This document shows positions 1 through 46,570 of a stretch of DNA of 51,995 nt, in pieces. The notes under the pieces are model-generated. The model ran no database searches and was not told the DNA's origin. It saw nothing but the letters and a program-made list of their open reading frames with translations. The translations under genes and the position numbers were made by a program. The first letter of the stretch is position 1. The number at the start of each line of letters is the position of its first letter. Source of the stretch: Perkinsus olseni (taxonomy: Eukaryota); assembly GCA_013115125.1 (NCBI GenBank), contig JABANN010000035.1, forward strand, positions 62,001 to 113,995, in the 5' to 3' direction.

Positions 1-195
1 GTATCACACTGAATCTTGATCTTTGAAGCTGTCACGGACAGCTGATGTCTATCGGCATGATAAAAATTGCATTGCACAACGGGAGTCGATGGCCGATGGT
101 AGCTCCCATAAAGATGAGCGAGGTGTCCTCAGGAGCGACTACAGAGGGGCTGGCAACGGCATCGTAGCGAAGCGCAGCCCGCCTCACAGATCTTA

Positions 196-9938: not shown

Positions 9939-11450
9939 TCATTTGGTAGGGGAGACCGTGGCAGAAGCCTGGATGCTGCTTGTCCCACTACCGACTCGGT
10001 ACCTACGCTCGAAGTAGGCCTGAATCTCCTCGAAGGTTTTGCCCTTGGTTTCGGGGACCAGGAATATGACGAACAATACCATGATGAGACAAATTCCAGC
10101 GAAGAGCCAGAAGACACCATAAAAGGTAATAGCTTCAGTGACTTGGTTCAAGAAGTGCGTGACAATGAAAGAACATAACCAGTTGACCATAGTAGCGATG
10201 GAAGCGGCCAATGCTCTAACTTCATCAGGGAAGAGCTCGGCCATTATCAACCACGGTATAGCACCAACACCGAAGGAGAAGGATGCGATATAACAATACG
10301 CAGCCGTGATGGCCAACCATCCAACATTCTGATTACCAGATACATTACTCAGATAAAAGAACAGACCCTCGCAGACAGCGCTGATGCACATGCCTGAAGC
10401 TGCTGTGATTAATAGAACTCTTCTGCCGAGTTTGTCGACGATCGCCACGGCGATGATCGTTACACCGACTTGGACAGCCATAACCGTTAAGGCCACTTCG
10501 TTCCTATTGTCGATGCCTGCCGCTTGAAAGATAGAAGTCTGGTAGAAGATGATAGCGTTGATGCCCGAGAACTGCTGCAGTACTTGTAACATAATGCCGA
10601 TGAAAAACTGCATTCTACTTCTATTCAACGCCTTCAAAGATTTCATAATGGAGCCCTTCTCCTCGGTATCTTTCTTAGCTCGGATAGCGTCAAGGGCAAT
10701 GAGTTCAGCGTTGACCTCGGGGTCGCTCTCATCGGCACCACGCAGCCTGATGAGGACGGATTTGGCTGCCTCGTTGCGAGACTTCTCAGCGAGCCAACGT
10801 GGGGACTCAGGGGCGAAGAACATGCATATCCCGAAGAGGGCAGCAGGGATGATGTAGATGAAGCTGAGGAGCCTCCAATTACAGAAGGTAGTGGAAGTAG
10901 CGTTTGGATCGGTGGACCCTGCCTGAGTGCGGAAGGCCAACCCGAGGACGTAGGCCAGTAGAATGCCGATGGTGATACCGAGCTGGTTGCACGCTCCCAG
11001 CAGGCCACGGTACTTGGTGGGGGCTATCTCACCGATGTAGGTAGGCACACTGAAGGAGCTCATACCGAGGGCAATGCCGATAAGGACACGGGCCAAGATG
11101 AGCTGCCAAGCTGTGTTGGCAAGGCCGATCCAAAGGAAGGCTAGCAGGAAAAGGGGGGATGCTCCAATAAGACTCCACTTGCGGCCGATTTTCTCGTTAA
11201 CAGGACCACCGCCGAGGGCGCCGACGATGGCACCGATGTTGACCATAGAACCGAAGAGGGAGGCTTCGTGGTCAGTACGCAAGACGAAAAAGGAAGATCC
11301 CTGGCCGATCTGGATGTGGTCCCCACCGGTGGTGGTCACGGTGTTCTTCATAGTGTCGATGGCTGGCCCTGAGAACCCCAGAGACAGCCCGAAAAGCAGC
11401 GCTCCGAAGAGGGACGCTGATACGGATAGAACCGCACAGGTATGATTCAT
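9939..11450 (-). CDS. MFS sugar porter (GLUT8/ERD6-like hexose transporter), intronless, 503 aa from the first ATG
   Basis: About 12 hydrophobic segments and sugar-porter signatures: KIGRK, PTYIGEIAPTKYRG, PESPRWL, QQFSGINAIIFY, DKLGRR, GAIPWLIMAELFP, VPETKGKTFEEI. Confidence 0.95.
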   Translation of the reverse strand: MNHTCAVLSVSASLFGALLFGLSLGFSGPAIDTMKNTVTTTGGDHIQIGQGSSFFVLRTDHEASLFGSMVNIGAIVGALGGGPVNEKIGRKWSLIGASPLFLLAFLWIGLANTAWQLILARVLIGIALGMSSFSVPTYIGEIAPTKYRGLLGACNQLGITIGILLAYVLGLAFRTQAGSTDPNATSTTFCNWRLLSFIYIIPAALFGICMFFAPESPRWLAEKSRNEAAKSVLIRLRGADESDPEVNAELIALDAIRAKKDTEEKGSIMKSLKALNRSRMQFFIGIMLQVLQQFSGINAIIFYQTSIFQAAGIDNRNEVALTVMAVQVGVTIIAVAIVDKLGRRVLLITAASGMCISAVCEGLFFYLSNVSGNQNVGWLAITAAYCYIASFSFGVGAIPWLIMAELFPDEVRALAASIATMVNWLCSFIVTHFLNQVTEAITFYGVFWLFAGICLIMVLFVIFLVPETKGKTFEEIQAYFERRYRVGSGTSSIQASATVSPTK

Positions 11451-12159
11451 TGACGATAGCAAAATTATCAACTGGTTCGGTAGCTGTAGCAGGTCGTCTT
11501 GCGCTCGCGTGCTGAAGATCTCGCTACGCCCGATAATGAAAACGCGTACGGGGACCCGAGTGAGCTACCTCACTCAGACACGGTCTTCGGGTAAGAAATG
11601 CCCCTCACGGAGGACGGGGTGTAAGGCCAGAGAAGAAGGGAACTGGAGGGTGGGGGGACAAGCGCCGCTGGAAACTCTTGTGAGCATCGGTCCGTAACCA
11701 GCTATGCACTGACGTGCTAATTCTTTGAATGCGCAATGGGCTGTCCCTTGCGAGCTTGGCTGTGCACTCTTAAAGCAACACCATCACCGTTATACAGCAG
11801 AAGCGATCTCTCACGCACCTCCCTTCAATGAGTCATAGACGTCTTCAACGGGGCTGGTCGGATGGCCCAGCTTCCGAACCTTCCAGTGGCGTGAGTAGCG
11901 TGACATTGCGTCGTCAACGATTTCGCAGCTTGATGTCAAGTGGGTTCATTCCACTATGAACACCCGAGGGTACGGAGTTGTAGTTGTGGGGGGCTGTAGC
12001 TTCCCAGTGAAGGTGCTCAATGGTTGTTGGAACCCAGGGACACTCGAATAGGGTAGACTGATTGGATATGAACAGAAACTCAACTCAATCATCGCCTTCT
12101 CAAAACTCCAATTGTTGCATCGCTCCGCTAGATATGCCTCACCAGCATCAACCTCATTC

Positions 12160-15664: not shown

Positions 15665-17817
15665 ATGAGCGTGCGGGGGCTCGGGAAGTGGGCAAACCAG
15701 GCCAGTGGAGGTACGTGGGGCCAAGGAGTTGTGGTTGTCCGTTTTTAATACCATTTTTCCACGACTTCGAGTGATCGCCATCCTTGGGGACAGACTCATC
15801 AATGGCGTGCGTTCCTGCAGTAGACCAGGCGTTGAGCTGCGGTTGTTATTCTCACGGGAGATCCGGTGAGCGGTCGGAGGAGAGTTGGGCGTTTTGTGGT
15901 ATCTCAGAGATGGGGAAGAAGACAGAGCGGGCGATAAGCATCATCATCAGCGAGGTGCTCGGAGGTAGTATCTTGGAGAATCTTTGTACTGCGCAAAGGA
16001 TGGTGGTACGAATGTTTAGAGATGATGACCGTGGGGGTCGATACTCCAGTGGTTATCCAACTACTGCTGGTAAAGGTCGAAAGGGTGGGGGAGGCCGGTA
16101 GTACACTGGGCGCGGCCAGGCACACCTCTCAATGGCCCATCTCGCTCACCTAGCTCACTTTAAATATATCGTGCGCAGTGCGCCATACCACTCTTTTCGC
16201 AACTTTCGGATCTTCCTAGGGTACCCTTTCTTGTCTCAGGGACGCCACTCCACCAAGCAGTCCTCAAACTGGCGGTCTCGGCCGAGGGGATTCTGGCCGG
16301 AAGCCTCTGCCGACCATTGGTGGAGGCGGTCTGGATCAATTCACGTTGGGTGATATAAGGAAGGCTGAGAAAACCCTGGAGAAGGTAAGGGCTGTTTCTT
16401 ATCGGCGTTAGCGGAGGAAAAGCTTCTTTCTGCAGTCCCATATGAGTCTGGGTCAGTACGCTCGTAAAGTGGCGCAAGGAGAGATCACTAAGACGGCAGA
16501 TGAGGAGGACGCCAAGTAGGGGGGGGCAGATTCTAACCTTATCCGTATCTTGCACGGGTGGAGCTTGGATTCCTGTTTTTCTCTCAGTAAACTGCTTGAT
16601 GATGACGATGGTTTCTTCGCGAGTGAGATTCCGGACGGTCAGGATGACGGAGGGAGGATGGCGAAGTGGCTCAAACCGACCGAAGGGAGCTCGGGCCCGC
16701 CGATGGTAATCTGGTCGGAGAAGTCAGTTCGCTGGTTTCGGGTATCGTATTTCACAAGCCTGGGGGAAATGGGGAACCGTCGTGAGGAGGGTGACACTGA
16801 AGTTCTTGGCGATAGCAATCGGGAGTCGTGTCTGCTATTTGCAAGATTTGTGGATGTTGTGGTATTGATTGTAATTATTTTCAGCCCCAACCCCATTTGC
16901 CGGCGGGCGCCAAGACTCTTGAGGAATTGGAAGCTTCTCAGAGGCAGAAACGACAACAGCGCGCTGCAGCGGAATCTTCGAGGATGCACGGCCGAAACCA
17001 ACAAAGTGTTGGACAGGTCAGTAGTATCAGCAGCAGCATCCGCTATAATTTCGTGGCGCGCGGTCACATGTCTGACGAATTTCCGATAAATGTCCTTTAT
17101 CTTTCATTCCTATTGGCCCAGCCTTCTCGTTATAAAATTCTCATCCGAACGATGGTCTGCTGCCGCAGGGCTTGCTGTCGCTACCCGTGGGTGGATGTCA
17201 AAGTCCTTTACTATCAGGGGAGCAATCAGGCTGGCCTGCAGCTTCTCTCAATGCTCCACTCAAAAGGCGGTGCTCAACAACAGCAGCAGAAGCAGCAGCC
17301 GACGCCTAGGCTGTCCTCAGCAGTACCCCCACCTCCACCGGTAGGGGTGAGGGCTCCTCCACCACCCCCTCCTCCGCCGCAGTACCGTCCACAAGCACCA
17401 CAGGTTGGACAGGGGCAGCGTGGGACCGTCTGGTCATGATGGTTTCTCAGGCCCCACAGCAGGCTCCTCAGGCTAGGTTCTCGACGCAGCAGGTTATCGA
17501 TCTGTTGCAGCAGGGGAGGCAGCAGCAGGAGGCTCAGAAGGCCAGGCAGCAACAAATTGAGAATCTGTTGTTACTGCAGCAACAGCTGGCTCGGGTGAGC
17601 TGGCTGCGACTCGAATGGTGGCGCGCGCCATGAAATTGTGGGTAGGCTCGAGCGCGTCAGGAGCAGACAGGACAGCAGATCACCCCCACGCCGAATATGA
17701 TGGCGTTGTTGGAGCAGCTGCAGAGACGACAGGTGAGACAGGGAGTCTCTCGCGACTGGTTTTTCTCGGAAGTGAACTGGGTGACAGGCCCAACGCCAGC
17801 AACAACAGCAACAGCAA

Positions 17818-17848
<31 letters not shown>

Positions 17849-18236
17849 AACGGCAGCAGATGTTGGCCTCCGCCATTGCCCAGCAACGAGCCGCTCAACA
17901 CCAACAGCAAGCGCATCAGTCGAATGCTTACCCTCAGCAGCAGCAACAACAACAACAGTAGGCATCCTGGGGGAGAGTGGCGGCGTTCGAGTGGTCTACA
18001 TCTTCAGGATCGACCCTGCCCTGCTGGCCCGTTTACAGCAGCAACAAGCTCAGTTGAGGATGCAGCAACAACAACAACAGCCGCAACAACAACCGCAGTG
18101 GAACCCACAGGTAGGAACAAAGGACTTAGCGCTCGCCCCAGTGATCGATTGTGGCCCTCTCTTTTTTCAGCAACCTCAGTCCAACTACAGTACTCCACCG
18201 AATGAGCAGGATGCCGAGCAGTGTAACCAGCAGTAG
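15665..18236 (+). CDS. Low-complexity Gln/Pro/Gly-rich protein ending in CNQQ (CaaX-like); start uncertain
   Basis: In-frame exons: DQFTLGDIRKAEKTLEK, AKTLEELEASQRQK, GLQLLSMLHSKGG, QVIDLLQQG, a poly-Q exon, IDPALLARLQQQQ and a final EQDAEQCNQQ* (stop at 18236). Confidence 0.6.
17797..17850 (+). repeat. Coding CAG/CAA trinucleotide repeat (about 18 Gln)
   Basis: Mixed CAG/CAA run in frame after the AG acceptor (AQR-Qn-RQQMLASA). Confidence 0.9.
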
Positions 18237-18386
18237 ATGGCGGTGGCGGCGGTCTCGGGATTGTCGCTTTCGTGAATGGAGCACTGCTGCTAGGTGGAGC
18301 CATTTTCCTCTAGTTGGAGGGGACCTGGAGTTGGGTTGTTAATGGAGTGGTGATGGGAATCTTAGGTTGATGCATGCAGTTGACAG

Positions 18387-21300
18387 ATGTCTGACGAAGT
18401 TGGGAGCGAGAAGCCGCATGTGGGATGGGAAATTGAAAAAATGACGGAATCGATCGAAACGACGCATCAGAACATTCAAAGTTTGAAAACGAAAATTGCC
18501 GGTGTTGTCGGCGGACTGAGTCAAATAAGGCTAGCGGTCTCCCTAGCTATACCGCCAGCGGGTGAGGAACGCTTCTTCGTGTCATCACCGTGGATCCGTG
18601 AGGAGTGTGTAGGTGACAGAAAAGACGGTTTCAAAAGGCTTGACGCGGAAGTTGCTAGGCGACGGTTGGAGCAGCTAAGGAAGGACATCGCTGACTACAA
18701 GGCTCAGGTGCCGGCCCACTCCTCCCAGTGGTGGTGATTGCCCTGGTGGGTAGGTCTATGAGTTGGCGGAAACTAGCGATGACAAGAAGCGTCTTCGAGG
18801 GAGTCTGAGGCGGAAAACCGCAGTGGATGATAAAACCAAGCCTTTGTGGGTTGATGAGCCGCTCTGGGTATGGTATCAGCTGGTGTGCAGGTTCGAGAGG
18901 TTGGGAGGGGCCGCTGACATCGGCTCTGCTGTGGACCTCGTCTACGACAAGGCACTTGCTGATCCCCGTGAGAGGGCGTTAACTCAGAGGGCTCTTGGTC
19001 TCTAAGACTAGACGAAAGCGGCGGCGGCAAGACCATCTTCTACGCTAGGGGACGGTCTCTCCGCGACTTGCCTTCTCACGTTGTTTCTTGCATCGGCCTG
19101 AGTGCCCTCGAGGTAGAGGGCCTCACTCTCGTCTATGCGAAGGTACACGAGCATACTTCGATAAGGCCCAGAAGAAAATGAGCCAGATTCGAGAGCGCAT
19201 GCAAACCTTCGTCGTGAGCTACGTGGGAGGCCCGGCGAACTATCAGGAGGAGGATCTGAAACCGGTAGGCTACTGCCAACTGGAATGGGTTGGTGCCGGG
19301 CGTCATGATGATGATGAACTACTGTTGTGACCCCACGGTTGGTGAACCCGACATGATAGACGTAGAATTGATATAATGACCTTTTTCATTCATGTGGATA
19401 TAATATTCATACTTATGAATAATAATGAAACTAAAGTACTTATTTTTTTCAATTATTGCATCATAATAACCAAACCCTTGAATAATAATACGCCTAGCTA
19501 GTAATGATGTTACGGCAGCTATACTTATGATAACTGACCCAACCATTCCTAGTTCAGCGTAAGACAATAAACGGAGACAGCGTCCGTGGACGAGATGCCA
19601 CAGTTGGCCGAGACAAAACAATAGTGAGGTCAGGTCCACTACAATATGAATATCATGGACTTCCACTTTGACGCCATGCTTGAACACTTCAATGCTGCCC
19701 TCCTGGAGATGGGCGTTCATTCCGAGGCCATCGCGGACTTCCTTCAACTTTTGGGGAGAATCCGCAAATACATAACGACCGGGAGTGTGTTTCCTCTACG
19801 CACTCCGGAGGAGTAGGTGGAGGTGTGGTAGGCACGGTGCGGATGGCGCTGGCTCGAAAGGCCGCTGAGCACGGCAGGGACGAGATGTTCCTCAACCTGG
19901 CCGAGAGCGAAGGGATTGCCAAGATCATGAGTCGAACGTGAGCATCCTGCTCTCGGCCTGCCTGGGGTTGTTCTATTCAGCGCACAGGTACGATATGGTA
20001 CAAGTGGATGACCGCCTTCGAAGCGTCTTTAAGGGGAAGGACATGGACGCTATCAGGCAGCAACAGACATTGTGAGTGACTCTGTCGTTTCTACTTGGCA
20101 GTATTAATAAAATCACGGATGATAAATGCTTGGGCGTTTTTCACGAGTTCGTTGATGTTCTTCCTATCTATATGTTAGTTGCTCATCACCTTCATGCGTA
20201 TCTTCTACATCCTGTTGTGACTTTTGGTACGATGATGGCTTTTTATGGTATCGACTCACGCATGCACAACACGATCGGCGCATAATGAGTAGCACTTTCC
20301 CCTCCGATAGATGAGCTGATGATGATGCCACTGATAGTAAAACGAACTTGACACTGATGTCTTTTCACTTGAATGATAATATATTGAATATTAAGTATAT
20401 GGTTATACTTATCCTGAGTTCCATGTGTTTCTCACCGTGTGTTATGAAATCATTCATGCAGTCTGGTCGAAAGAAGGTGTCCAGAGCTTATCTTGAGCAT
20501 TGAAGCTGAAAATATCCTGATAAGGATATTGGAGCGAGCCCGGTCTGGATTCGACGAAGGTTGAACCCTCAGAGAAGCGTAGTCCGTCATGAGAGGGTTC
20601 TGACCATGATGGTTCTCATGACCGTTCTCCGTTCATTTCAATCCACCCTCCTCCCCCCAGATATCTAAGTACCCCTCCAGTGTGTTCGTTATACTGTAGT
20701 CCGGTGGACTACATGAATATGATAATATTGACAATGCCTAAAATTAATTCTAATATTTTCTTTGTGAATCGCATTGACGGCGTGGTAAGTGACACTACGC
20801 TCATTGTTAGTACTCCTTTGGTAGGTACATGTGTGAGCTGTTAGGAGGCCCTAGGATGTACGAAGGAAGAGGTATGCTGGAAATACACGAAAACCTGAAG
20901 ATAAACGATTATTTATTCGACTGTTTCGTTATGGACGCTGACCGTGCATTACACAGTGAGTTGGCGCGGTCGGAGGAATCTTAGGTTGAAGCGTGCTGGA
21001 TATCCATCAGGTTTGAATATGACTGAAGAGCTGCATGACATTGTCATCTCTATGATGGAAGAACAACGGAAATATGTCGTGAAAGGCCACAACAAGGCGG
21101 ACACGCAGCGATTGGTGGAGGGCAAAACGGTAACGGAAACTCTCGACCAGTCTTTTTTTTGTATCTTGCCGCTTTCTCAGATTCTCGACCGCATCGGAGG
21201 CGAGTTGAACGTCGAAGCTGTCGTGGAGACAATGTAAATAAATCGTCAATACCGCTCAGTTCTCACGAAATCGAAATTTACAAGAATTCTCGGAAAATCT

Positions 21301-24300
21301 TTATTCCGCTTTCAAGCAAGTTGCTTAAGAAAATTTCCCAGGAGGCCAATCCATCTTGAATCATGCTGCGCTGACGGCAGTCTCGGCTTTCTCGGTGATC
21401 ATCGACCGATCGACCGTCTATTGTGTGTGATAGGTACTTCGGAGCTGAGCGAGATCCGAGGATAAAGTTCTTCTTCTTTCTAGACAAGGATAAGCTAGCA
21501 ACAGTGAAGCGCAGAGTCACAGACTTCCTCTGCGGTGCTCTCGGCGGCCAGTCGACGTGAGCGGTCCTCAACGCTTTCCCGAGGCTGATCGGAAGCTCTG
21601 GCAGGATTGACGTGAATATCGTGAGAGCTGTGCATTACCCGATGAATATTGGTGACCATCAATTCGACGCTCTGGTGGAGAATCTTTCGACCTCGATGGA
21701 GCTGATGGAGGTGGACCCCGACGTCAAGGGTGATGTCCTTGATGTGGTCAGCCATGTAAGTCCCATGCTACCACTGCGTGAGTTGAGAACGTCACCTTTC
21801 AGTTGAGAGGGGAGATCACAGCGGGGGCCACGAGCAGGCTAGAGATCGCCCGAAGGAAAACGGAGTCTGCTGGTGAGGCGTCTCTCGACGAACCATTCCT
21901 CCAGGGCCTTCGTCGTTCAGGGACAGATGGCCTGTACAAGACCTTGGGCGGCGACGCTGGTATCGTTCAATTCGTGGACGAACTGTGAGTTGCTTCTTCA
22001 CGCCTGGGAGCTCGCCCCACTCATTTGTTCAACTCTGAGGCTTCGTATACATCTTTGGGTGGTCGGTGGGGCTCAGAGTGATTTAGGATAGCTCATGAAT
22101 CTCATCGCAGCTTCTGAAGGCGGGCGGAACCTGTCTTTGGCCTGCTGTGGTTTGAAGGCTTGAATCGATTCAGTATCTTGAAATCACCCTTGCTTTGCAT
22201 GGGTCAACTCCTTGCCATGATATCTCAAGGTACAAGATATGCCTTCTCGACGATCGCATCAAGATGTTCTTCCAAGGCAGCAAGCTCGACGCGGTGAAGG
22301 CAGCCCAGACCATCTTCATGCAGCAGTTGCTCGGCGGAGCTGTCGAGTGAGCATCGCCCGCACCACCACCATTCAACTGCCAAGAACATGACGAGCTTCC
22401 CTCTTGTCGTCGTCACGCTGTCATCAACTCTTCCTCGATTCCTCGTTGCTTGCGCTTCCGTTCCCCATCCCGAAAGACTTCTCGCAGTACTGCTATCCGT
22501 CAGGTACACCGGACGCGAGCTGAAGCGGATCCATCAGACGCTTCTCATTCAAGACTGGCAGTTCGATGCCTTCTTAGATAACGCTCGGAAGGCTTTAGCT
22601 TCGCTCGAGTAGGCCATCTCTCTAAAACGATCGAACGCTGCCTCCCTCAGTACTGATAGTGATACCACTGATGAGTGCACGGTTCTGATGGAAACTACAC
22701 GTCTAGTGAGTCCTTGATGTGAGCACACCCTCAGAGCCTCCTCTGTCTCAGGAAGTGGTTTCCGCTGTGAACCGACAGTTCGACGTGAAACGGATGATAC
22801 AGGACGCCCATCGGAAGCCTCTTTACGAAAGGGTTGGAGGGGAAGTTAGTAGGTCGCAGCTGTATAAGATTCTCTAAGAGTATCACTGGTACTTTACCTC
22901 AGCAATTGCGAGGCTGTGCGACTCGATGTACACGGCTGCGCTGGAGGATGATCGACTAAGGTTCTTCTTCGAGAAGAACAAGGCCAAGGTCAGCTCTGCC
23001 TGCCTCCCCAGGCTTCAACCCAATATATTCTTGACTCCATCGCTCGGTGGTGCGATGAACCATTGGCTGGGGAGTCCAGGTTGTCCCTTCGGGCGTTATT
23101 CAACATACTGTTGGAAATTGTGCTCAAGTCAATAGTGCCACACACAGTGGGCGTAGAATCACTGCGATAATAGGGCGTCGAGAGTTCACTAGTGGCGATT
23201 GTGCATGGCATTGGGTGGGGATCAGGAGAGGAAATGTAGCTGTCTGCGTGTTGTTACCATCTTTCCTTCGTCGTCAGGTCCAATCTATCAAGAAGAAGAT
23301 GACTCAGTTCATCTGCGGTGCCATCGGTGGTGAGTCAGCTCACGTCCTCGTCGATTCAGGCGTCCGTACTCGTCTCGCCTTCCTTTCTGCAATCACTCCT
23401 GTGGTGGAACGTTTCAGCTATGCATACAATTACGGTCGTAAAATGGGATGGTCCCTCCCACCGTTGATACTACTATGCCGTATTTGATGCGGCGTTGACC
23501 CGCGCATTCGTCAGGTCCGTCGACTTACGACCCGGCGGATCTGCGACCAGCCCATTACTCGATGAACATCGCCTCACACCATTTCGATGTCATGCTATCT
23601 TTTATCAAAGAGGTGAACGACAGGGGGGGGGGCTGCCGTTGCTGAAGTCATGGGATATGTCTTCCATTAGATCCTCAAAACCGAGCTGGAGCTTGACAAG
23701 GCGGATGTGAGGGAGGTCCTCAGGGCTCTGCAACCCGTTAGAGGAGATATTATTAATGGATGTAAGCCGGTGGGATTCATACCACATTTCCCCCTAATCA
23801 TCAATTTATCGCTCTTTTCGCTATTCCATCGCTCCACAACTCAGCAGTGGTTTTCAAGGAACGCCAGTCTCTCCTGTGAGGAAGGGCGAGCGACTGGTAC
23901 GACTCTCCAGATACTGTCCGGTCGGAGATAGCTCGACGGTCTACGGACAACGGCCTCGACCAGATGTTCCTCAGAGTTGGTGAGAATTCGCCATTGGCGT
24001 CGCTGCGCCAGAAGTGATTACTGGCAGGCGAATCGGAAGGCGTCACGAGAATCGTCAACTCACTCTTCTCGATCCTCGCCACGGACGCACGGATAAAACG
24101 CTTCTTCAAGCCAGAGAAGCGAGACCAGCTGAAGCAAGGCGTCACCGTCTTCCTCGTGGACAGGTTCGGTGGGCCTAAGAACTACCAAGGTGGTTCAAGT
24201 CCGCGGGTCCCACTTCCTCGAATTGGGTTCTCACAGGTCGCGATCTCACAGCAGCCCACGAAGGCCTCGGCATCACCGACTACCACTTCGATGCATTCGT

Positions 24301-26123
24301 AGCTGACTTTTTGAGGTGGGCTTCTCTTCATCGTAACACCTAGTCTATCGGCTGCCGTTCCCAGGGCACTCAGCGCCAGCGATGTTGATGAAACTGTCGT
24401 CGACGAGCTGATCGTTAATCTGGAGCCTCTGCGGTCACAGGTGGGCAGTAGATACCAGCTGGATGCAGTTGCAAGGCCTATGAAGGTACTTGGTCGAAGC
24501 GATGAAGTTAACGCGGTTGTGACGAAGAACGGTCAGACGCTGTTGGAGAGGTTGGGTGGAGACGACCAACTGGAGACTTTGGCTGATGTCATGTGAGGTT
24601 GCTCGTTAAGGGCCTTCACAAACCAACTTACTCATACGCTCGTAGACCTCACGGTGGAAATGTTGCCGTTAAGGGGTGGATGCGGAGTCGCTCGTGATCT
24701 TCCTTTTATCATCAATGCAACCGATGTCGCGGTTGCCCGTCTGCGCTCAACCGCAGTAGTCGGCGGGCGAAGGAAGAGCCCGAGCGAACGGGACGTCCCA
24801 TCAGCCCCACACGATACACTATCAAACAGTTCCTCAGCATGAATCCATTCTCGCTACAGCGCAGTTATCAAGCTCCCCTACCAGGCTCATCGACGCGGAA
24901 AGGTGCCTTATCAGGAATGAGAAAGTCCTGGAGGACAGCCGCCTCCGCTTCTACTTCGAGAAGAGTCACTTCAAACGGCGGAATATCCGTCGGAAATTAT
25001 ACCAGTTCATGTCTGGAGCGTTCGGCGGGCCACTCCAGTAGGCCTCGGAGCCACTCGGCCTCGCCGTGCTGCTCTGTAGGGCCGTCCTCCGGCTCAGGTA
25101 CGACAACACTCACCTGAAGCCCGCGCATTATGATATGAATATTACTGACTACCATTTTGATGCTTTCCTATCAGTTTGGATGGCCGTGTGTGAGTGTCAT
25201 TCAGCTGCTGTTATTTTCCGCTGCGCTACTCCGCCCGCTCGAACGCTGGTAGCATATTGCAGGTAAGGAACTGGATGTGGATGGTGAAGCCGCTGAGGAC
25301 TCCATTGAAGTGCTTAACGGAGTCCGATCGGCAATCACCGGCGGATGCGTCGTCAGGATGGAGATGTCTCGGAAGAAGGTGAGGCCTGGGAGCGCCTTCC
25401 CAGCGCACTTTGGCTCATCCTCAGGCCCAGCTCGAGAGCCCCGTTCAACTCTTCGAGCGCCTCGGTGGAAGAGAAGGAGTGGTCGAGCTGGCCGACAAGC
25501 TCTTCACGATGGTCACTCGGGACCACCGTAGGCGGCTTCTTTGTATCCCCGGCAATGACGGTTGCATTGTTAAGGCATCGAAATGTTCTTCGAGGGAGCC
25601 AAACTGGAGAGTATGTGGCAGGGGCTCACTTCGTACTTATTGCAAGCCTTCGGTGGTCCGCAAGATTATCAGGGTCGACCTTTGGATGAGGTTCACGAGG
25701 TGAGAGGATTCTTCATGACCGCAGGCTATCTGGCTGAGATTCTAATCAATATCATTTCCTTTTCTTGACATCGTCTAGCCTGCAGTGCGTCATCGACCAT
25801 AATTCGGCTGCGTGCTAACAGTGACTATTCTCTCAGTCGCTGGCCATCAACGACTATCATTTCGATTGCTTCCTTCAACTGCTCCACCGATCACAACGAT
25901 TGCTTGGACAAGATCACGACCTCTGCAACGACACTTTGGTATCGTCGAGGCTTCGGCGGCCTCTTCGCCCTCGCCCTGCCGTCTGATCATTCTCCAGGGT
26001 TTTGCGGTTGATTCACATCTACTGATGTTTCAGGAAGTACTCGAGAACCTCCGCCCTCGGGTTCTCCATGCCCATTATCTGCGATCCGGCACAGCTCATG
26101 CCGATGGCTCTGCGGCGAAGTGA
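18387..26123 (+). CDS. Multidomain globin: N-terminal coiled coil plus 8 tandem group I truncated (2/2) haemoglobin domains, about 35 exons
   Basis: All exons join in frame through GT-AG introns. Eight repeats of the trHbN pattern (L[FY]ER[LV]GG...D-x-R-x-x-x-[FY]-F...[FY]-x4-GGP-x2-Y...H...I-x-D-x-[HQ]-FD). Approximate domain spans: 18838-19783, 19885-21086, 21122-21826, 21929-22760, 22815-23760, 23962-24495, 24530-25344, 25444-26074. Stop TGA at 26121-26123. Confidence 0.92.
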
Positions 26124-26829
26124 CGGCCCAGCGTAGCATGTATTCGGCAATCTACCAGTCTACCAGTGTCGTACATTGCCGATAGTTCCGCGTTGTAACT
26201 AGAGTTCAATGTTATAAAGCTCGAAAGTATTTGGAATTTGCGAAAGCACATCCCTGCTCCATGTAATAGTAAAAGCGCTTGCAAAACAACTTCCAACTGC
26301 CGCGCCGAAGATTGGGAGGAGCTGTCTTGAAAGCCTCTCACAACGCTAGAAGCGCTTCCATACGACGCTGAAGCCTCTGTCGAGATCCTCCGAAGCCTGT
26401 AAACCAGGTGCGAATCCTCGCCCGCACTGAAGAGGTACTCGGTAAAGGACGTTTGGAGCTCTCCGTTCCAAACGTGTCCTATGATAAGCGGGATAACTTG
26501 GGCAGTAACGGAACAGCAGGCCCCTTAATATATTTTGGTTACAATTTCTCGCTTTTTGCGAGTCAGAGCTCGGCGCTATTACAGCGCCGCTGTACACATC
26601 GTGGTGTAATATCGAGGGGCAACAGACCCTCCCCAGTGAGGCTGAAACACAACATGATGTTGTGCAGAGAGGCATGTGCCGAGAGACAGTTCATCTGCTG
26701 GTGTTGTTTATCGAGGCACTCAATAGAGGCTTTATAGCGATAATTGATTATTCAGCAGCTGTTGTAACGAATAGCACTATAAGAGTAATACGTTAATATG
26801 CGGAATAGTAATTGGCCACGAAGATTCAC

Positions 26830-39837: not shown

Positions 39838-40708
39838 CGTTGATGCTTTCGGCGAGGGAGCGATAGCTTCACGAAGGCTATCACGTACGAAGACGAGTCG
39901 GTACCCGATGTATTGTTATGAATACGCAGTGATTAGCTCCGCTACTTACTCTTTCCGAGGAAGAGCGTGGGAGACTAAGACTTTTTGTGATGAGCTGCTT
40001 ACCATTACCTTGGACTTTTTGTTTCAACTTTGAACATCACCGTTGATTTCCAGGTTACAGAGGTAGTATCGCAGTTTTCCGTAGACACCGCGATGCAGTT
40101 TTGTGAATGCCGGAATGTCTGCGCAGGAACTATACTCTTGAGAGCGAGGAGCGTGTTTAGTTTGAGACAGATGAATCAACCGAGCAAAGACCCCCCCACA
40201 TGAGCTGGTCCGGGCAGTCTAGTCATTGACACTCCCAGTGTTTCGCTGATGGTAAGGCCGCAAAGGAGCACATCGAAAGTGGCAGGGTGGAGTCATCTCT
40301 ACTGATTTCTTTCTTCGACCGACGTCGAACTCGCGATCAGACGCGATATTATCCGTGTTCAGAGCCCTTCGGAGCTTCAGGACGCAGGCAACCTTATCGG
40401 CGTTATGTTCTTATTATAAGTGTAGTTCTTCAGAGAGTGCTCAGCGTCAACGGTAAGAATATTGTAGGCTGCATTTCGATTGGTAAAGGACGATGGGTCT
40501 CCGAGCAGCGCGTCCAAACCCGAGGAGAAGATTGTTGTCAGACGACGCGGTAGGCTCGAATGAGGTAGGGTCATAATACTGCAGAGCGTTCCCGTGTTGA
40601 GAGGAACGCCAATGCTGACTCATCATTGCCGAGCAGCTAGCTCGATGATCGTTGATTGTGCGAGTGAGTGCAGTTTCTCCCAGGTCAGTTTTCCCCGAAT
40701 GATCTTCC

Positions 40709-41577
40709 ATGCCCCGTCATGCCATCGTACGATCACTGGCCTTTCTTGTCCTGACGGCTGCCTCTTACAACTGCTGGCGAAATCGCTTCACTGACTACTC
40801 TGACTTCCCGGTCGCGTACTCTCAATGCTGCGATCCTCTCAATGGTCCGGTAGGCCGCTCTGCATGCTTCAATGGTCGCAGTTATACCTTTACAGATTGC
40901 TGTCTCAAACAACCACGCGACGGCTTAACCAACCTCACAAACGAAGCCAAGGAGCTTGGCATCCACTCCGGCTTCAACTTGGTGGAGTTCCTCACGGCGC
41001 CGCCCTTCCACGAGAGATTCATCGAGCTCTTTCCGTTCATACGCTCCTTGCTACGAGATGGCCGTTATTCAGCCCAGTGTGACATCCTCGCGACTAAGTG
41101 GTTTTCCCATGTCCCGACGGCCGAAGAAGAGGCCCGCCGCGTCAGCCCGGCATGGGTGTGCTCCAAGCTTTCTGATAACGCAGACTTCTGCATGAGCATC
41201 TATGCTCGAATGTGGCAGCATACCGTTTGGCGTCGAGACCTTCATCGTGGCCGACTCACCATGGCTCAGTGTACGTACGCGATGCGACTACTCTACGCCA
41301 TGGGGGTGTTCCTGGCTACCGATGATCTTGAAAACGCCTCACTTACTGAGGCAACGCCGCGAATGATGAAGGAGTGGTTTTACTGGCGGTGGTCGGGCAG
41401 AATGCGAACATGTGAGGTGCTCAACCAGCAACGCGAGCGGAGGGCTGCCGGCATCGTTCGGCTTTCTTATGTCCGTAGCTTATAATACGAAGGAAACTCC
41501 GATGGCCACGGCAGCTATCGAGATGTGGAGATGCTACGCCGACTACCACGGCTACTCGTTCATCCTCAATGATGCGC
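40709..41577 (+). pseudogene. Truncated and frameshifted copy of the GT34-like glycosyltransferase
   Basis: Highly similar to 44750 onward until RRAAG. A deletion then shifts the frame (stop at 41485). Homology resumes in another frame (FLMSVAYNTKETPMATAAIEMWRCYADYHGYSFIL) and ends near 41577, before the DxD motif. Confidence 0.8.
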
Positions 41578-42759: not shown

Positions 42760-45670
42760 AGATCCAGCTAGCTTAGCTCTAGCTAACTTAGCTGAGCTAA
42801 CTAGAGCAAAACTGATTCGTGCAGCCCACTTCATTTGATACAACATTTGAAATTGATCTACGCTGCGGTAGACATGGTTGCATTCTTCGCTGTGAGAATT
42901 ATGCTCATCATTGGTGTTGCTATCGCTGTTCAAGACGGTGATCGCCGTGCTAAGGTTATGGAAGACCACCACGCGAAGGGTAGGCTTGGCCCGATCCCCG
43001 ACAAGGTGGGTGATGGAACATGGGTTGGTGGTTCAGCTGCCGAGAGTCGCAGGCTTTGTGGTAATTGCAATTACACTCCGCAATGCTCAACGTGCCTCGA
43101 TTGCCGGGACTTTGAGTTCGTCCTTCCTGACTGTGTAGATGCCGCTGCAGACTGCGGATACTCCCGTGATTGTGACTGCTGCTTCCCCAAGTAGATCCAG
43201 CCACACGACGGTTCATCTTTCGATGAAGGAGCGATAGTTTCGCCCTGGCTTTGCGGCCTCCCACTTGAAATTTATAAGTACGTGTAGGAATGACTTTGTT
43301 ACTGCGATGCTTCACGATCGGCGGCTAACCATTACTTTGTAACTATTTTTCGAAGTCCAGAACCGGTATCGGAGTTTTCCGTAGACACCTTGATATAGTT
43401 TTGAGGGTGCCGGAATCTTTTCTCCGTTATCAGAAACGAGGAGCGTGTTGGATTGGTAGGAGGTAAATTATGGGATCGGCTTCGGCTTTCGAACGCACCG
43501 GGCGCGAGTTTCTCCCTCCGAGCGTCGCTACAGTGAAGTACAAAACTGCCGGACGGGCCAGTCTGGAAAGCACTGCTCCAGTCCTGCTCCAACTGAGCGT
43601 TACAAATGCTACTCCGCGTTTACCCGCGAAGTGTTGGATATCATATTACTGGTCCAGGCGACCTTTGAGGTATGCTGTGGAGAGGAGTGCAGACTCTTCG
43701 TGTGATGATCCTGAACTAAAGTGCTGGTTGAACCAGCCTGGTTCCAACCGCTGAAGCCAGACTTTGTCGAGCTTCTCTCACTAGTAGTGAGTCACTAGTT
43801 CCAGACGGAGGGTTATCTCTACAGATTCAATCAGTCCGATTGTCTTCTGTGAAGACTTCCTACAACTGACATCCTTCCGCAGCCTTGACCATGGCAAGAT
43901 GAACATCGCATCATAGGACAGTGTCGGTCTCCCGAGTTCTTCTGAGTTCCAGTAGCAGTTGCAACCACTAACCTTCAACACTTCCATCTTGAGTCATTGG
44001 GAAACTTGAAGTGGATGGGGCTGCTAATCGTCAGGAGCACACACTCCAGTTTAGGATGCTTCCCACGTTAACTCTCAGCAATCTCCAAGTCCAGCTCGTT
44101 CTTTCTCGTCCACTCTGCAAGGCTCTTCGCGTTAGCGCTGAGGAGACTCGCAACGATCTGTCGTTTAACCAAGTAGATTGCGATGAGTCTCTCCAAGCCC
44201 TAGGATATATCTTCTATGGAGTTTTTGCTAGAACTGCTCCACCATCAACTTTGTTCGCTCTCCTCCCTCATTTCTTGCGTGAGCCACCCGCGTCTCGGCA
44301 GCACTTGTGCGACGCTGCTCCTTTCCGCGAGTTAGTGAGGACTTCGTTCCCTTGCCGTGAAGTTTCGGGTTCTTCTTCCGAACCCTTGCGTAGCATCTGC
44401 AGCATTGGATGCTTCTTGAGCTCTCCCTGAGTGGCGCCTTCCTGGTCGAGTACTACCTCTTCGAAGAATCCTCAGCGTCAACGGTACAAAGCTAATCAGC
44501 TGCACTTCGAGTGACAGAGGAAGACAAGGCGCCGACCAGCGCAACTTTCGCGAGAAGTTTTTAACTGATGCGGCTTATCAGTCCCGAATAAGGTTGCAAT
44601 TCTCGCTTATAATACTGCAGAGTGTTGCAAACTCAGTGTTCCCGCGTTGAGAGTGACGCCAATGTTGGGCACTTCGCACGGTGGTGACTTTGCGGGTAGG
44701 GCAATGCAGCTGCCCTCAGGTCGGTCTTTCTCTTCCCGAATGATCTTCCATGCCCCGTCATGCCACCGTACTGCTGCTGACTTGTGTCGTCGTGATTGCT
44801 GTCTCTTTCAACTGCTGGCGAAATCGCTACACTGACTACTCTGACTCCCCGGTCGGGTACTCTCACTGCTGCGATCCTCTCAACGGTCCGGAGGGCCGCT
44901 CTGGATGCTTCAATGGTCGCAGTTATACCTATACAGATTGCTGCCTCCACGCACCACACGACGGCTTCACCAACCTCACAGACGAAGCCAAGGAGCTCGG
45001 CATCAGCACCGACTTCAACTTGGTGAAGTTCCTCACGGCGCCGCCCTTTCACGAAGGATTCATCGAGCTCTTCCCCTTCATATGCTCCTTGCTACGAGAT
45101 GGCCGATATTCAGCCCAGTGTGACATCCTTGCAACCAAGTGGTTCTCCCATGTCCCGACGACCGAAGAGGAGGCTCGCCGCATCAGCCCGGCATGGGTGT
45201 GCTCCAAGCTTTCTGATAACGCAGACTTCTGCATGAGCATCTATGCTCGAATGTGGCAGCACACCGTTTGGCGTCGAGACCTTCATCGTGGCCAACTTAC
45301 CATGGCTCAGTGTACGTACGCGATGCGACTACTCTACGCCATGGGGGTGTCCTTGGCTGCCGATGACCTCGATCCCAGTCCTAATGTAACTGAAAGGACA
45401 TCACGGATGACGATGGAGTGGTTTTACTGGTGGTGGTCGGACAGAATGCGAAGATGTGAGGTTCTCAACCAACAGCGGGAGCGTAGGGCTGCCGGCGGCG
45501 ACATACAAGTCCCGGCGACCGCCGCTGGGGCTCCTCCAGCCGACCGCGTCGGCATTCTTATGTCGGTAGCTTACAACACGAAGGAAACCCCGATGGCCAC
45601 GGCAGCTGTCGAGATGTGGAGATGCTACGCCGACTTCCACGGCTACTCGTTCATCCTCGATGATGACGCT
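42760..45670 (+). repeat. Copy 2 of the tandem segmental duplication
   Basis: Shares the blocks listed for copy 1. Carries extra unrelated sequence at about 43450-44460. Confidence 0.9.
42874..43194 (+). CDS. Secreted Cys-rich prepropeptide, paralog 2 (106 aa)
   Basis: Signal-like MVAFFAVRIMLIIGVAIA, pro-region, SRRL site, then a mature part with 10 Cys ending DCDCCFPK. The ATG is homologous to that of paralog 1. Confidence 0.8.
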   Translation: MVAFFAVRIMLIIGVAIAVQDGDRRAKVMEDHHAKGRLGPIPDKVGDGTWVGGSAAESRRLCGNCNYTPQCSTCLDCRDFEFVLPDCVDAAADCGYSRDCDCCFPK

Positions 45671-46570
45671 CACGACAGCTACGATGGGCTGTACGCTGTA
45701 CGGTACCCCAGCATGAAGACTGAAGTTGCTCATCGCATCAGCAATCACGAACCTGTTGATGTGAACCTCGTCAGTCCGCCTTCGGTGGGGTGGATGAAGT
45801 GGAGGGCTGCCCGTCGCTGGCTCGGCGAGTTCGATGCGCTCATCATCGTGGACCCGGACATGCTGGTTAGCTTCCCTTGCTACAGTATTGCTCTCCATCA
45901 CTTGCTACGCCAAGGGGCTGACGTTGTCCTGCGTGACTACCCACCGAAGGCTGAACTCAACGCTGGTTTCGCCATCGTCAGAAACACGCCCAATGGACGC
46001 TTTTTCTTGGACTCCCTACTCAGCAAAGCGGCGTGGTACGGCCTGACCCTCGCCGATCAGGACGCGTTGGCTGAGACTGCGTTGCAGTACGTCAGCCACG
46101 AAGTCAATAATGAACTCCCGCAAGAGTCCTCGATCAGCGTGATGAACCCCATCCGTTATGCGAGTCAATGCTTGGACACCATGGTCCTGTACAAGACGGG
46201 GCTCTACAGCGAGGCTGATCAGGTTGTCTGCTTCCAGAAGCATCTGACGATATTAGCGGGCCAGTGGGGTGCGCGGACGACCCGGTCGATCAGATTTGTG
46301 GACCCGAGAGAAATTGATATTAATTACCGTGTGACTTTAACGTCTAGGATTAATGGCACGCCGATGGTTGTGCATTGGGCTGGCAGCGCCACCAAGTTCG
46401 AAGATATGTCCTTATACGTCCATCGGCTGGCGAGAGTGAATATTTCAACGATTACGAAATCAGAGTGGCCTCGAGTATGCCGGGAGGAGCTCTGGTCGAG
46501 CCACTTGAGCAGGACTTGTACGCCTGGAAGCACCGAAGACCTGTGGTGTGACTCTTATTTGTGTGGGTAG
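44750..46570 (+). CDS. GT-A glycosyltransferase, GT34 (GMA12/MNN10-like), with signal anchor and Cys-rich N-terminal module; intronless, 606 aa
   Basis: MWRCYADFHGYSF, WMKWRAARRWL, IIVDPDMLV (DxD), LNAGFAIVRNTPNGRFFL, DQDAL and MVVHWAG follow the order of GT34-type motifs. Confidence 0.8.
   Translation: MPRHATVLLLTCVVVIAVSFNCWRNRYTDYSDSPVGYSHCCDPLNGPEGRSGCFNGRSYTYTDCCLHAPHDGFTNLTDEAKELGISTDFNLVKFLTAPPFHEGFIELFPFICSLLRDGRYSAQCDILATKWFSHVPTTEEEARRISPAWVCSKLSDNADFCMSIYARMWQHTVWRRDLHRGQLTMAQCTYAMRLLYAMGVSLAADDLDPSPNVTERTSRMTMEWFYWWWSDRMRRCEVLNQQRERRAAGGDIQVPATAAGAPPADRVGILMSVAYNTKETPMATAAVEMWRCYADFHGYSFILDDDAHDSYDGLYAVRYPSMKTEVAHRISNHEPVDVNLVSPPSVGWMKWRAARRWLGEFDALIIVDPDMLVSFPCYSIALHHLLRQGADVVLRDYPPKAELNAGFAIVRNTPNGRFFLDSLLSKAAWYGLTLADQDALAETALQYVSHEVNNELPQESSISVMNPIRYASQCLDTMVLYKTGLYSEADQVVCFQKHLTILAGQWGARTTRSIRFVDPREIDINYRVTLTSRINGTPMVVHWAGSATKFEDMSLYVHRLARVNISTITKSEWPRVCREELWSSHLSRTCTPGSTEDLWCDSYLCG

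Follow-up and report, generated by a model that had tools for sequence, protein, structure and literature searches.

An intron-rich gene of Perkinsus olseni that very probably encodes a single chain of eight group I truncated haemoglobin domains

In this study, a stretch of 51,995 nucleotides (nt) from Perkinsus olseni (GenBank assembly GCA_013115125.1, contig JABANN010000035.1, positions 62,001 to 113,995 of the forward strand) was analysed; it is called the window below, and all coordinates are positions within it. Positions 18387 to 26123 of the + strand very probably constitute one intron-rich gene for a single polypeptide in which eight group I truncated haemoglobin (trHb) domains follow one another. 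Truncated haemoglobins are generally viewed as small stand-alone proteins. To the favoured explanation as a whole, that is, an eight-domain gene of ancient design with a multi-haem role toward nitric oxide (NO) or O2, we assign a probability of about one half.

Gene model and coding region

The gene model was obtained by protein-to-genome spliced alignment guided by P0001, the orthologue from P. chesapeaki, followed by re-translation with a splice-site table. The coding sequence of 3555 nt, split into 35 exons, specifies 1185 amino acids (aa), with a predicted mass of 134 kDa and an isoelectric point of 5.7. This agrees well with the roughly 35 exons and 1,100-1,200 aa estimated in the initial annotation, which had been made from the sequence alone. 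All 34 introns begin with GT and end with AG, and the frame is open throughout. Translation would start at the ATG at 18387, upstream of which an in-frame stop is found, and end at TGA (26121-26123). Because P0001 carries a 72-aa insertion, the frame guided by it was wrong in exons 16 and 17; the alignment being misleading there, these two exons (22230-22346 and 22504-22608) were set by reading the DNA. No long open reading frame (ORF) betrays the gene, as had been noticed before: the longest stop-to-stop ORFs of the + strand within it are 142 and 139 aa (18000-26500 scanned).

Most introns are short, 21 of the 34 measuring 42-60 nt, and intron 8, of 753 nt, lies inside the second domain. The donor sequence GTGAG is present in 16 of the 34. 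After the acceptor AG, the exon starts with G in 27 and with GT in 17 of the 34 cases, a strong AG/G(T) bias at the 3' splice sites. One phase-2 intron site, just before helix position B10, recurs in D2, D3, D4 and D7 (domains are numbered D1 to D8 from the N-terminus), and a second phase-2 site recurs in D3, D4 and D7. Neither tandem repeats nor long repeats were found at the DNA level inside the gene; therefore, the domain repeats are ancient. An Rfam scan of 18000-26500 gave no match at E ≤ 0.1, and tblastn with P0001 revealed no second globin locus in the window. Coordinates are collected in Table 1.

Table 1. Positions in the window of the globin gene, its exons and the parts of its predicted protein, with the proximal histidine (F8) and pocket residues of each domain
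Feature	Position	Strand	Residues (aa)	F8 His (aa; motif; codon)	B10	E7	E10	E11	Remarks
Whole coding region	18387..26123	+							35 exons, 34 introns; spliced alignment and re-translation with splice-site table
Exons 1-7	18387-18561, 18613-18707, 18754-18845, 18891-18967, 19143-19264, 19634-19784, 19832-19937	+							
Exons 8-14	19988-20071, 20825-20955, 21011-21129, 21181-21233, 21434-21556, 21605-21755, 21803-21872	+							
Exons 15-21	21921-21984, 22230-22346, 22504-22608, 22651-22705, 22752-22848, 22903-22988, 23278-23329	+							
Exons 22-28	23515-23612, 23671-23761, 23911-23979, 24028-24189, 24237-24315, 24365-24440, 24486-24592	+							
Exons 29-35	24915-25037, 25098-25189, 25263-25378, 25425-25527, 25575-25699, 25837-25938, 26034-26120	+							
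Exon 18	22651..22705	+							55 nt; codes for last helix of D4
N-terminal extension	18387..18825	+	1-114						Exons 1, 2 and part of 3; non-globin, helical or coiled-coil-like look
D1, A type	18826..19780	+	115-236	189; PVHYN; 19637-19639	Tyr	Ile	Arg	Met	
D2, B type	19867..21084	+	250-369	322; EIHEN; 20886-20888	Tyr	Ile	Gln	Gln	
D3, A type	21118..21823	+	381-500	453; AVHYP; 21633-21635	Tyr	Val	Arg	Val	
D4, B type	21866..22763	+	515-634	587; RIHQT; 22532-22534	Tyr	Val	Ala	Gln	
D5, A type	22803..23757	+	648-770	722; PAHYS; 23553-23555	Tyr	Ile	Lys	Met	
D6, B type	23946..24494	+	784-903	856; AAHEG; 24257-24259	Phe	Leu	Gly	Val	
D7, A type	24525..25342	+	914-1034	987; PAHYD; 25126-25128	Asn	Ile	Lys	Leu	
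D8, B type	25431..26069	+	1049-1168	1121; EVHES; 25694-25696	Phe	Met	Gly	Leu	17-aa tail after domain

Domain architecture

The predicted protein consists of an N-terminal extension of about 114 aa and eight complete trHb domains. A hidden Markov model (HMM) of the domain was built from 56 Oxyrrhis and environmental domains; as no Perkinsus sequence entered it, its use here is not circular. Searching the spliced protein with this HMM detected eight full-length domains, with i-E values from 1.9e-33 to 3.3e-42, and the reversed sequence gave no match. All eight F8 motifs quoted in the initial annotation are present, one per domain, with the histidines spaced 131-135 residues apart.

The expected count of eight globin domains was reached by the spliced protein with our own HMM and by P0001 with Pfam, the latter having been applied to P0001 and to the unspliced ORF pieces of the window. 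On the pieces, PF01152 (Bac_globin) appeared at E ≤ 1 in 8 of 68 pieces and above the 21-bit cut-off in 3 of 68. Those matches covered D1, D2, D3, D5, D6 and D8, and no single piece of D4 or D7 scored.

The domains are of two types that alternate as ABABABAB, with D1, D3, D5 and D7 forming type A and D2, D4, D6 and D8 forming type B. Two small indels set the odd domains apart from the even ones. Mean identity within the protein is 35% between domains of the same type and 26% between those of different types (full range 14-41%). In the full-length alignment of the family, the A-to-B linker after D1 contains an invariant T-T-G-C-T-V-R stretch, variants of which occur in the window after D1, D3, D5 and D7; the linkers are conserved and basic.

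For the extension, no Pfam family was found above the cut-off with either exon 1 or the P0001 extension, which gave sub-threshold coiled-coil-type matches only, and an Atlas search returned no usable match. No signal peptide or membrane segment was evident from inspection of the N-terminus and a hydropathy scan. The protein is taken to be soluble, and a secreted or membrane-bound form was considered and rejected; the highest 19-residue hydropathy, 1.69, is located in the N-terminal extension.

Group I assignment and haem pockets

When solved structures were searched with the orthologue, 24 chains matched at E ≤ 1e-5. All of them are named group 1 trHb, HbN, GlbN, cyanoglobin, THB1 or plain (haemo)globin, and names of group 2, group 3 or HbO were absent from these 24. 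The best match was Tetrahymena pyriformis trHbN (3aq5, E 2.7e-18). Globin PF00042, the 3/3 fold, was not found, P0001 and the eight-domain relatives showing only PF01152 and a weak Protoglobin overlap. Gly-Gly hinge motifs (AB and EF) are a hallmark of the 2/2 fold. All eight window domains have the Gly-Gly ahead of the F region and six have the N-terminal Gly-Gly, which is replaced by other residues in D2 and D6. His F8 is kept in 8/8 window domains and in 79/79 aligned domains, and Phe CD1 in 8/8 and 73/79, respectively.

Residue labels E7, E10, E11 and G8 follow what we take to be the standard numbering, applied to the alignments, with G8 presumably at F8+13. Trp, which is characteristic of groups O, P and Q (PMC4720485), was found at the G8 column in 0/79 domains. 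For B10, the identification with Tyr25 is backed by the Y25F variant named in PMC11904497. By sequence, all eight domains are group I (N-type, T1) trHbs, as the initial annotation had proposed.

One haem b is likely to be bound in each domain through His F8, which would give eight haems per chain. The possibility of degenerate domains without haem was rejected, His F8 and Phe CD1 being intact in 8/8.

The distal residues vary considerably (Table 1). Type A domains have Tyr B10, except D7, and at E10 a basic residue, as is usual in this group, either Lys (D5, D7) or Arg (D1, D3). The HbN-type pair of Tyr B10 and Gln E11 occurs only in D2 and D4, there with an aliphatic E7. In D1, D3 and D5, Tyr B10 is accompanied by Met or Val at E11, and the pockets of D6 and D8 are fully apolar. 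The B10 residue of D7 comes directly after intron 28, an intron without RNA support. With pockets so different, the eight haems would be of unlike reactivity.

RNA evidence for splicing

One public run, X1, presumed to be RNA (0.19 word share) and kept as contigs, was compared with the window over 18000-26500. Such contigs carry no expression level, no transcript ends and no proof that a form is absent, and 15 of the 16 joints were listed. Thirteen of the 34 introns were matched exactly by listed joints, namely introns 4, 5, 10-13, 15, 16, 19, 20 and 23-25. Both introns of D4 that had been corrected by reading the DNA were confirmed, since joints 21984>22230 and 22346>22504 correspond to introns 15 and 16. 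A 483-nt contig links exons 10-14, that is, the end of D2, D3 and the start of D4, and confirms introns 10-13. A 456-nt contig links exons 15-21 without exon 18 and runs from D4 into D5; its pieces (23 + 117 + 105 + 97 + 84 + 30) make up the full 456 nt and leave no room for exon 18. Joints 23761>23911 and 23979>24028 (introns 23 and 24) tie D5 to D6. Spliced contigs thus cross the D2/D3, D4/D5 and D5/D6 borders.

These contigs, together with the open frame and the whole transcripts of Oxyrrhis described below, bear out the earlier claim of a single chain from one gene. Several separate genes were rejected as an explanation, as the frame is open throughout, contigs cross domain borders and the orthologues are whole.

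Exon 18 has strong splice signals, and its sequence is conserved in P0001. The contig that skips it could reflect an assembly path or an isoform that is either unproductive or regulated. One further joint (22984>23287) is non-canonical, with CA..CT and 13 extra letters. Some pieces of X1 are unspliced or intronic; therefore, the run is not pure mature mRNA.

Two side observations concern the ends and the long introns of the gene. In the contig over exon 1, the match starts at 18364, at an AG located 23 nt before the ATG; nine unaligned letters precede it, which would fit a trans-spliced leader. In the regions of long introns 5 and 8 (19136-19419 and 19988-20555), X1 depth is 34 to 105, vs about 2 over exons, and loose contig ends occur at 19322, 20257, 20291 and 20307. 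These introns probably hold repeated or separately expressed elements.

Orthologues and protein family

P0001 is annotated in NCBI as a hypothetical protein of 1273 aa and was found from an ORF piece of the window at 75% identity. In tblastn it is collinear with 18387-26111, and it contains eight Pfam Bac_globin stretches (E 6.4e-107). Its residues at approximately 582-653 form a 72-aa insert at the place of intron 16 of the window gene, resembling a retained intron in D4. P0002 is a database model from P. olseni itself, 231 aa long, with 90% identity to an ORF piece of the window and lying on a 3.6-kb contig; it ends after D1 by reading into intron 6.

Of 7999 candidates scored in a near-length search, 23 proteins matched at E ≤ 1e-5. 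Pfam stretches were counted in 21 relatives, of which ten had 8, five had 7, two had 11, two had 6, one had 10 and one had 5. Our own HMM counted eight domains in all complete proteins with lengths of 1107-1219 aa. Transcripts of Oxyrrhis marina (P0008 and the P0021/P0027 cluster; names as in EukProt/MMETSP) encode proteins of 1154-1159 aa, are labelled 'type:complete' and contain the extension and eight domains. Other eight-domain members are several Perkinsus paralogues and unnamed intron-less environmental ORFs on ENA and JGI contigs. For the environmental eight-domain protein P0015, eight pattern matches were obtained in the prokaryote genome collection and none was confirmed. The survey of relatives that had been suggested for this architecture found it in P. 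chesapeaki, O. marina and environmental ORFs.

All eight-domain relatives share the conserved N-terminal extension (about 100 aa), and an HMM made for it matches the start of each. This HMM also matches inside the long 'partial' Perkinsus models P0005, P0006, P0007 and P0017, in every case immediately ahead of an array of at most eight domains. These Perkinsus models with 8 to 11 domains are therefore probably neighbouring eight-domain genes merged by annotation, and an extension with eight domains is the true unit.

A phmmer search with P0008 against 1.84 billion representatives yielded 2741 matches at E ≤ 1e-3, of which 331 reached E ≤ 1e-10 and 53 reached E ≤ 1e-30. Full domains were counted with our own HMM in the 147 new proteins among the matches listed, a list in which multi-domain proteins are over-represented owing to the eight domains of the query. 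Two domains were the commonest state (67 proteins), followed by three (33), four (17), one (11), five (7), six (4), none (4), seven (2), eight (1) and twelve (1). No relative longer than 2028 aa was found, which is weak evidence. The strict ABABABAB pattern is confined to the close family, and the other arrays among the relatives are of one type; therefore, tandem trHb arrays arose more than once.

In some relatives, trHb arrays are fused to a protein kinase (P0100, P0106 and P0110, the last from the dinoflagellate Biecheleria cincta) or to an MCP signalling domain (P0101 and P0175). Judged from these fusions, such proteins are candidate haem-based sensors.

Order and age of the array

A tree was made from 79 domains of 10 proteins, comprising the window protein, P0001 without its split D4, P0020, P0008, P0010, P0011, P0021, P0013, P0015 and P0019; partial models and near-duplicates were left out. 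The split between odd and even domains had a support of 1.0 in FastTree, and the even clade an ultrafast bootstrap (UFboot) value of 100 in IQ-TREE. In FastTree, seven of the eight positions were monophyletic, and D5 was paraphyletic at the base of the odd group. UFboot values in IQ-TREE were 100 for D3, 99 for D8, 97 for D6, 99 for (D2,D6) and 98 for (D3,D7). Domains at the same position in the window protein and in Oxyrrhis are 40-53% identical. Since the position clades are shared across the lineages at this level of identity, the order of the eight domains predates the perkinsid/Oxyrrhis split. Each of the eight positions has an orthologue of its own in P. chesapeaki, O. marina and environmental protists. 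As read from these sequences, the design of an N-terminal extension followed by four AB pairs, (AB)x4, is older than that split and has been kept at exactly eight units.

The sister relations of D2 with D6 and of D3 with D7 indicate that at least one block with a B-A pair was duplicated. A simple doubling from AB through (AB)2 to (AB)4 was rejected, as D1/D5 and D4/D8 were not recovered as sisters.

Comparison with known globins

Each domain of the window protein is a full-length homologue of the single-domain group I trHbs, such as 3aq5, THB1 (4xdi), HbN (1idr), Paramecium Hb (1dlw) and GlbN. Like them, the window domains have His F8 and Phe CD1, carry a Gly-Gly hinge ahead of the F region, and lack Trp at G8. 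The window protein differs in having eight such units fused in one chain and in the loss of Tyr B10 from D6, D7 and D8. Moreover, E7 is aliphatic in all eight domains, whereas Gln is aligned there in Tetrahymena, if the presumed helix numbering holds.

Multi-unit T-family globins were reportedly described in silico by Hade, Kaur, Chakraborti and Dikshit (IUBMB Life 2017), as cited in PMC7475203 and PMC7082302. The former states that T1 multi-unit trHb sequences were 'detected in ciliated protozoan parasites' (PMC7475203, citing Hade 2017). As far as these sources tell, such proteins resemble the window protein in having tandem 2/2 units of T1/N type on one chain in microbial eukaryotes. Proteins with several 2/2Hb domains are also mentioned in PMC7082302, where THB5 of Chlamydomonas reinhardtii is said to have four and to be uncharacterised. 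By that description, THB5 belongs to the class I 2/2Hbs and, like the window protein, carries its domains in succession on a single chain, with four domains vs eight.

The nine-domain haemoglobin chain of Artemia, a polymeric animal haemoglobin (PMC4503718), likewise contains many globin domains that arose by internal duplication and whose positions are conserved. Chains of the Artemia type are extracellular O2 carriers of animals with the 3/3 fold, whereas the window protein is a 2/2-fold protist protein without an evident signal peptide. Its likeness to them is one of analogy and does not reflect homology of the array. In the diplonemid Lacrimia lanifica, P0041 (1882 aa) has a tandem Bac_globin array after an N-terminal stretch of about 100 aa, as in the window protein, with 12 domains by our own HMM and 10 stretches by Pfam. 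Unlike the window protein, it shows no A/B alternation and no match to the extension HMM. This array looks like an independent expansion.

Searches of the open literature returned no relevant text pairing Perkinsus with truncated or multi-unit globins, or Oxyrrhis with haemoglobin, and no multi-unit truncated globin characterised at the bench. The initial annotation had left open whether this architecture had been described before. The answer is divided: the kind of protein is already known, as multi-unit group I globins in silico and as the four-domain THB5, and an orthologue is already in public databases; the fixed design of extension plus (AB)x4, its positional orthology across deep divergence and the heterogeneous pockets were not found in print.

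Possible functions

The most likely function, put forward tentatively, would be that of a cytosolic multi-haem NO dioxygenase or NO/O2 buffer. M. tuberculosis HbN is a potent NO dioxygenase (PMC3493545), and the Tyr B10/Gln E11 pair has been studied in that protein (PMC4720485). Domains of the D2/D4 type would carry out O2-dependent oxidation of NO, and the remaining haems may bind or store ligand or pass electrons. With regard to the Lys at E10, this residue is the sixth haem ligand in Chlamydomonas THB1, THB2 and THB4, which are reduced by nitrate reductase or ferredoxin systems (PMC7082302).

Several points weigh against the favoured explanation. Concerning the gene, 21 of the 34 introns are without a listed X1 joint, and no contig spans the whole of it. 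Exon 18 is missing from one spliced contig (joint 22608>22752), and this skip shifts the frame, leading to a stop after aa 617, within D4. Of the eight contig pieces listed, three consist of unspliced or intronic sequence, and introns are retained in records 2 and 6. Concerning function, Gln E11 occurs in just two of the eight domains, and Tyr B10 is absent from D6, D7 and D8. None of the eight has a polar E7, unlike the B10-E7-E11 network of Tetrahymena. According to a 2011 report by Igarashi, Tetrahymena trHb reportedly depends on that network to bind O2 stably and to detoxify NO. The helix-position labels E7, E10, E11 and G8 themselves rest on a presumed numbering. Pfam detected no reductase domain in the window ORF pieces or in P0001, and no partner was identified. 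The relatives fused to kinase or MCP domains point to sensing over catalysis.

A rather unlikely alternative is that the eight-haem chain serves mainly as an intracellular O2 store or buffer, or facilitates O2 diffusion, and is not an enzyme. Linkage would raise the local haem concentration, and differing pockets would span a range of affinities; the eight intact His F8/Phe CD1 pockets with varied distal residues are compatible with this. Such a role suits fluctuating oxygen, as for Oxyrrhis in tide pools and Perkinsus in hypoxic bivalve tissue, and the design is common to free-living and parasitic lineages. The nine-domain Artemia chain and other animal multi-domain haemoglobins carry O2 (PMC4503718). 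However, the animal polymers are extracellular and their size prevents loss, a rationale that fails for a protein without an evident signal peptide or membrane segment, and trHbs often serve roles beyond O2 transport or storage, according to PMC11904497.

It is quite improbable, though conceivable by analogy, that the chain is a covalent hetero-octamer, (AB)x4, folding into one multi-haem assembly loosely like tethered alpha-beta haemoglobin. The A domains with Lys or Arg at E10, which would be hexacoordinate-type and fast to reduce, could then act as electron relays or allosteric partners of neighbouring B domains with open pockets, and the chain would serve as a self-wired NO dioxygenase or bind O2 cooperatively. 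Compatible with this are the constant number of eight, the conservation of the A-to-B linkers and the retention of each position since before perkinsids and Oxyrrhis separated.

A gas or redox sensor or scaffold, in which a ligand-driven conformational change would be passed to a partner via the helical N-terminal extension, is very doubtful. The kinase and MCP fusions of relatives and the conservation of the extension and of the A-to-B linkers are in its favour, but those fusions are distant (24-33% identity) and without the ABAB pattern, eight haems are many for a sensor, and Pfam recognised no output domain in the ORF pieces, P0001 or the extension.

It is highly unlikely that the gene acts mainly through shorter products, with splicing or proteolysis at the conserved basic linkers releasing one-, two- or four-domain globins and the octamer being a precursor or minor form: the contig without exon 18, the intron-retaining contigs and the ending of P0002 in intron 6 would fit this, but P0002 sits on a contig of only 3.6 kb, the exon-18-skipped form leaves D4 without its last helix, the frame is open across all 35 exons, D5-D8 are conserved as orthologues like D1-D4 (40-53% identity to Oxyrrhis), and the Oxyrrhis transcripts are complete eight-domain ORFs.

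Other features of the window

Just upstream of the globin gene, at 17797-17859, a CAG-type triplet repeat with 21 copies of period 3 was observed. X1 depth reached 2470 at 18000-18283, probably owing to cross-matching of low-complexity sequence. On the - strand, 9939-11561 is an intron-less ORF of 540 aa that matches Sugar_tr, the MFS sugar transporter family, in full (E 3.3e-116). Regions 40427-41574 and 44458-45665 are direct repeats with 72-93% identity, approximately 4.04 kb apart, thus indicating a tandem gene duplicate. The ORF at 44744-46567 gave only a weak DUF273 match.

Implications

Perkinsus species are important pathogens of oysters and clams, and host haemocytes are reported to make NO. 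The initial annotation had supposed that the protein could matter for a parasite facing host NO or hypoxia. This idea is weakened, as the same protein occurs in the free-living Oxyrrhis marina and in intron-less environmental ORFs. Extension and eight domains being present with positional orthology in free-living Oxyrrhis, the protein is not a parasitic adaptation.

The results are also of practical use for annotation: P0002 stops after D1, P0001 has a 72-aa retained intron in D4, and several Perkinsus models of 10-11 domains resemble two adjacent genes run together. The number of exactly eight, the fixed alternating order and the conserved leader, kept across a deep alveolate divergence and among Perkinsus paralogues, argue that the array may work as a unit rather than as loose beads. 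The protein offers a tractable case for the role of covalent multi-haem 2/2 globins, be it NO detoxification, O2 buffering or internal electron transfer.

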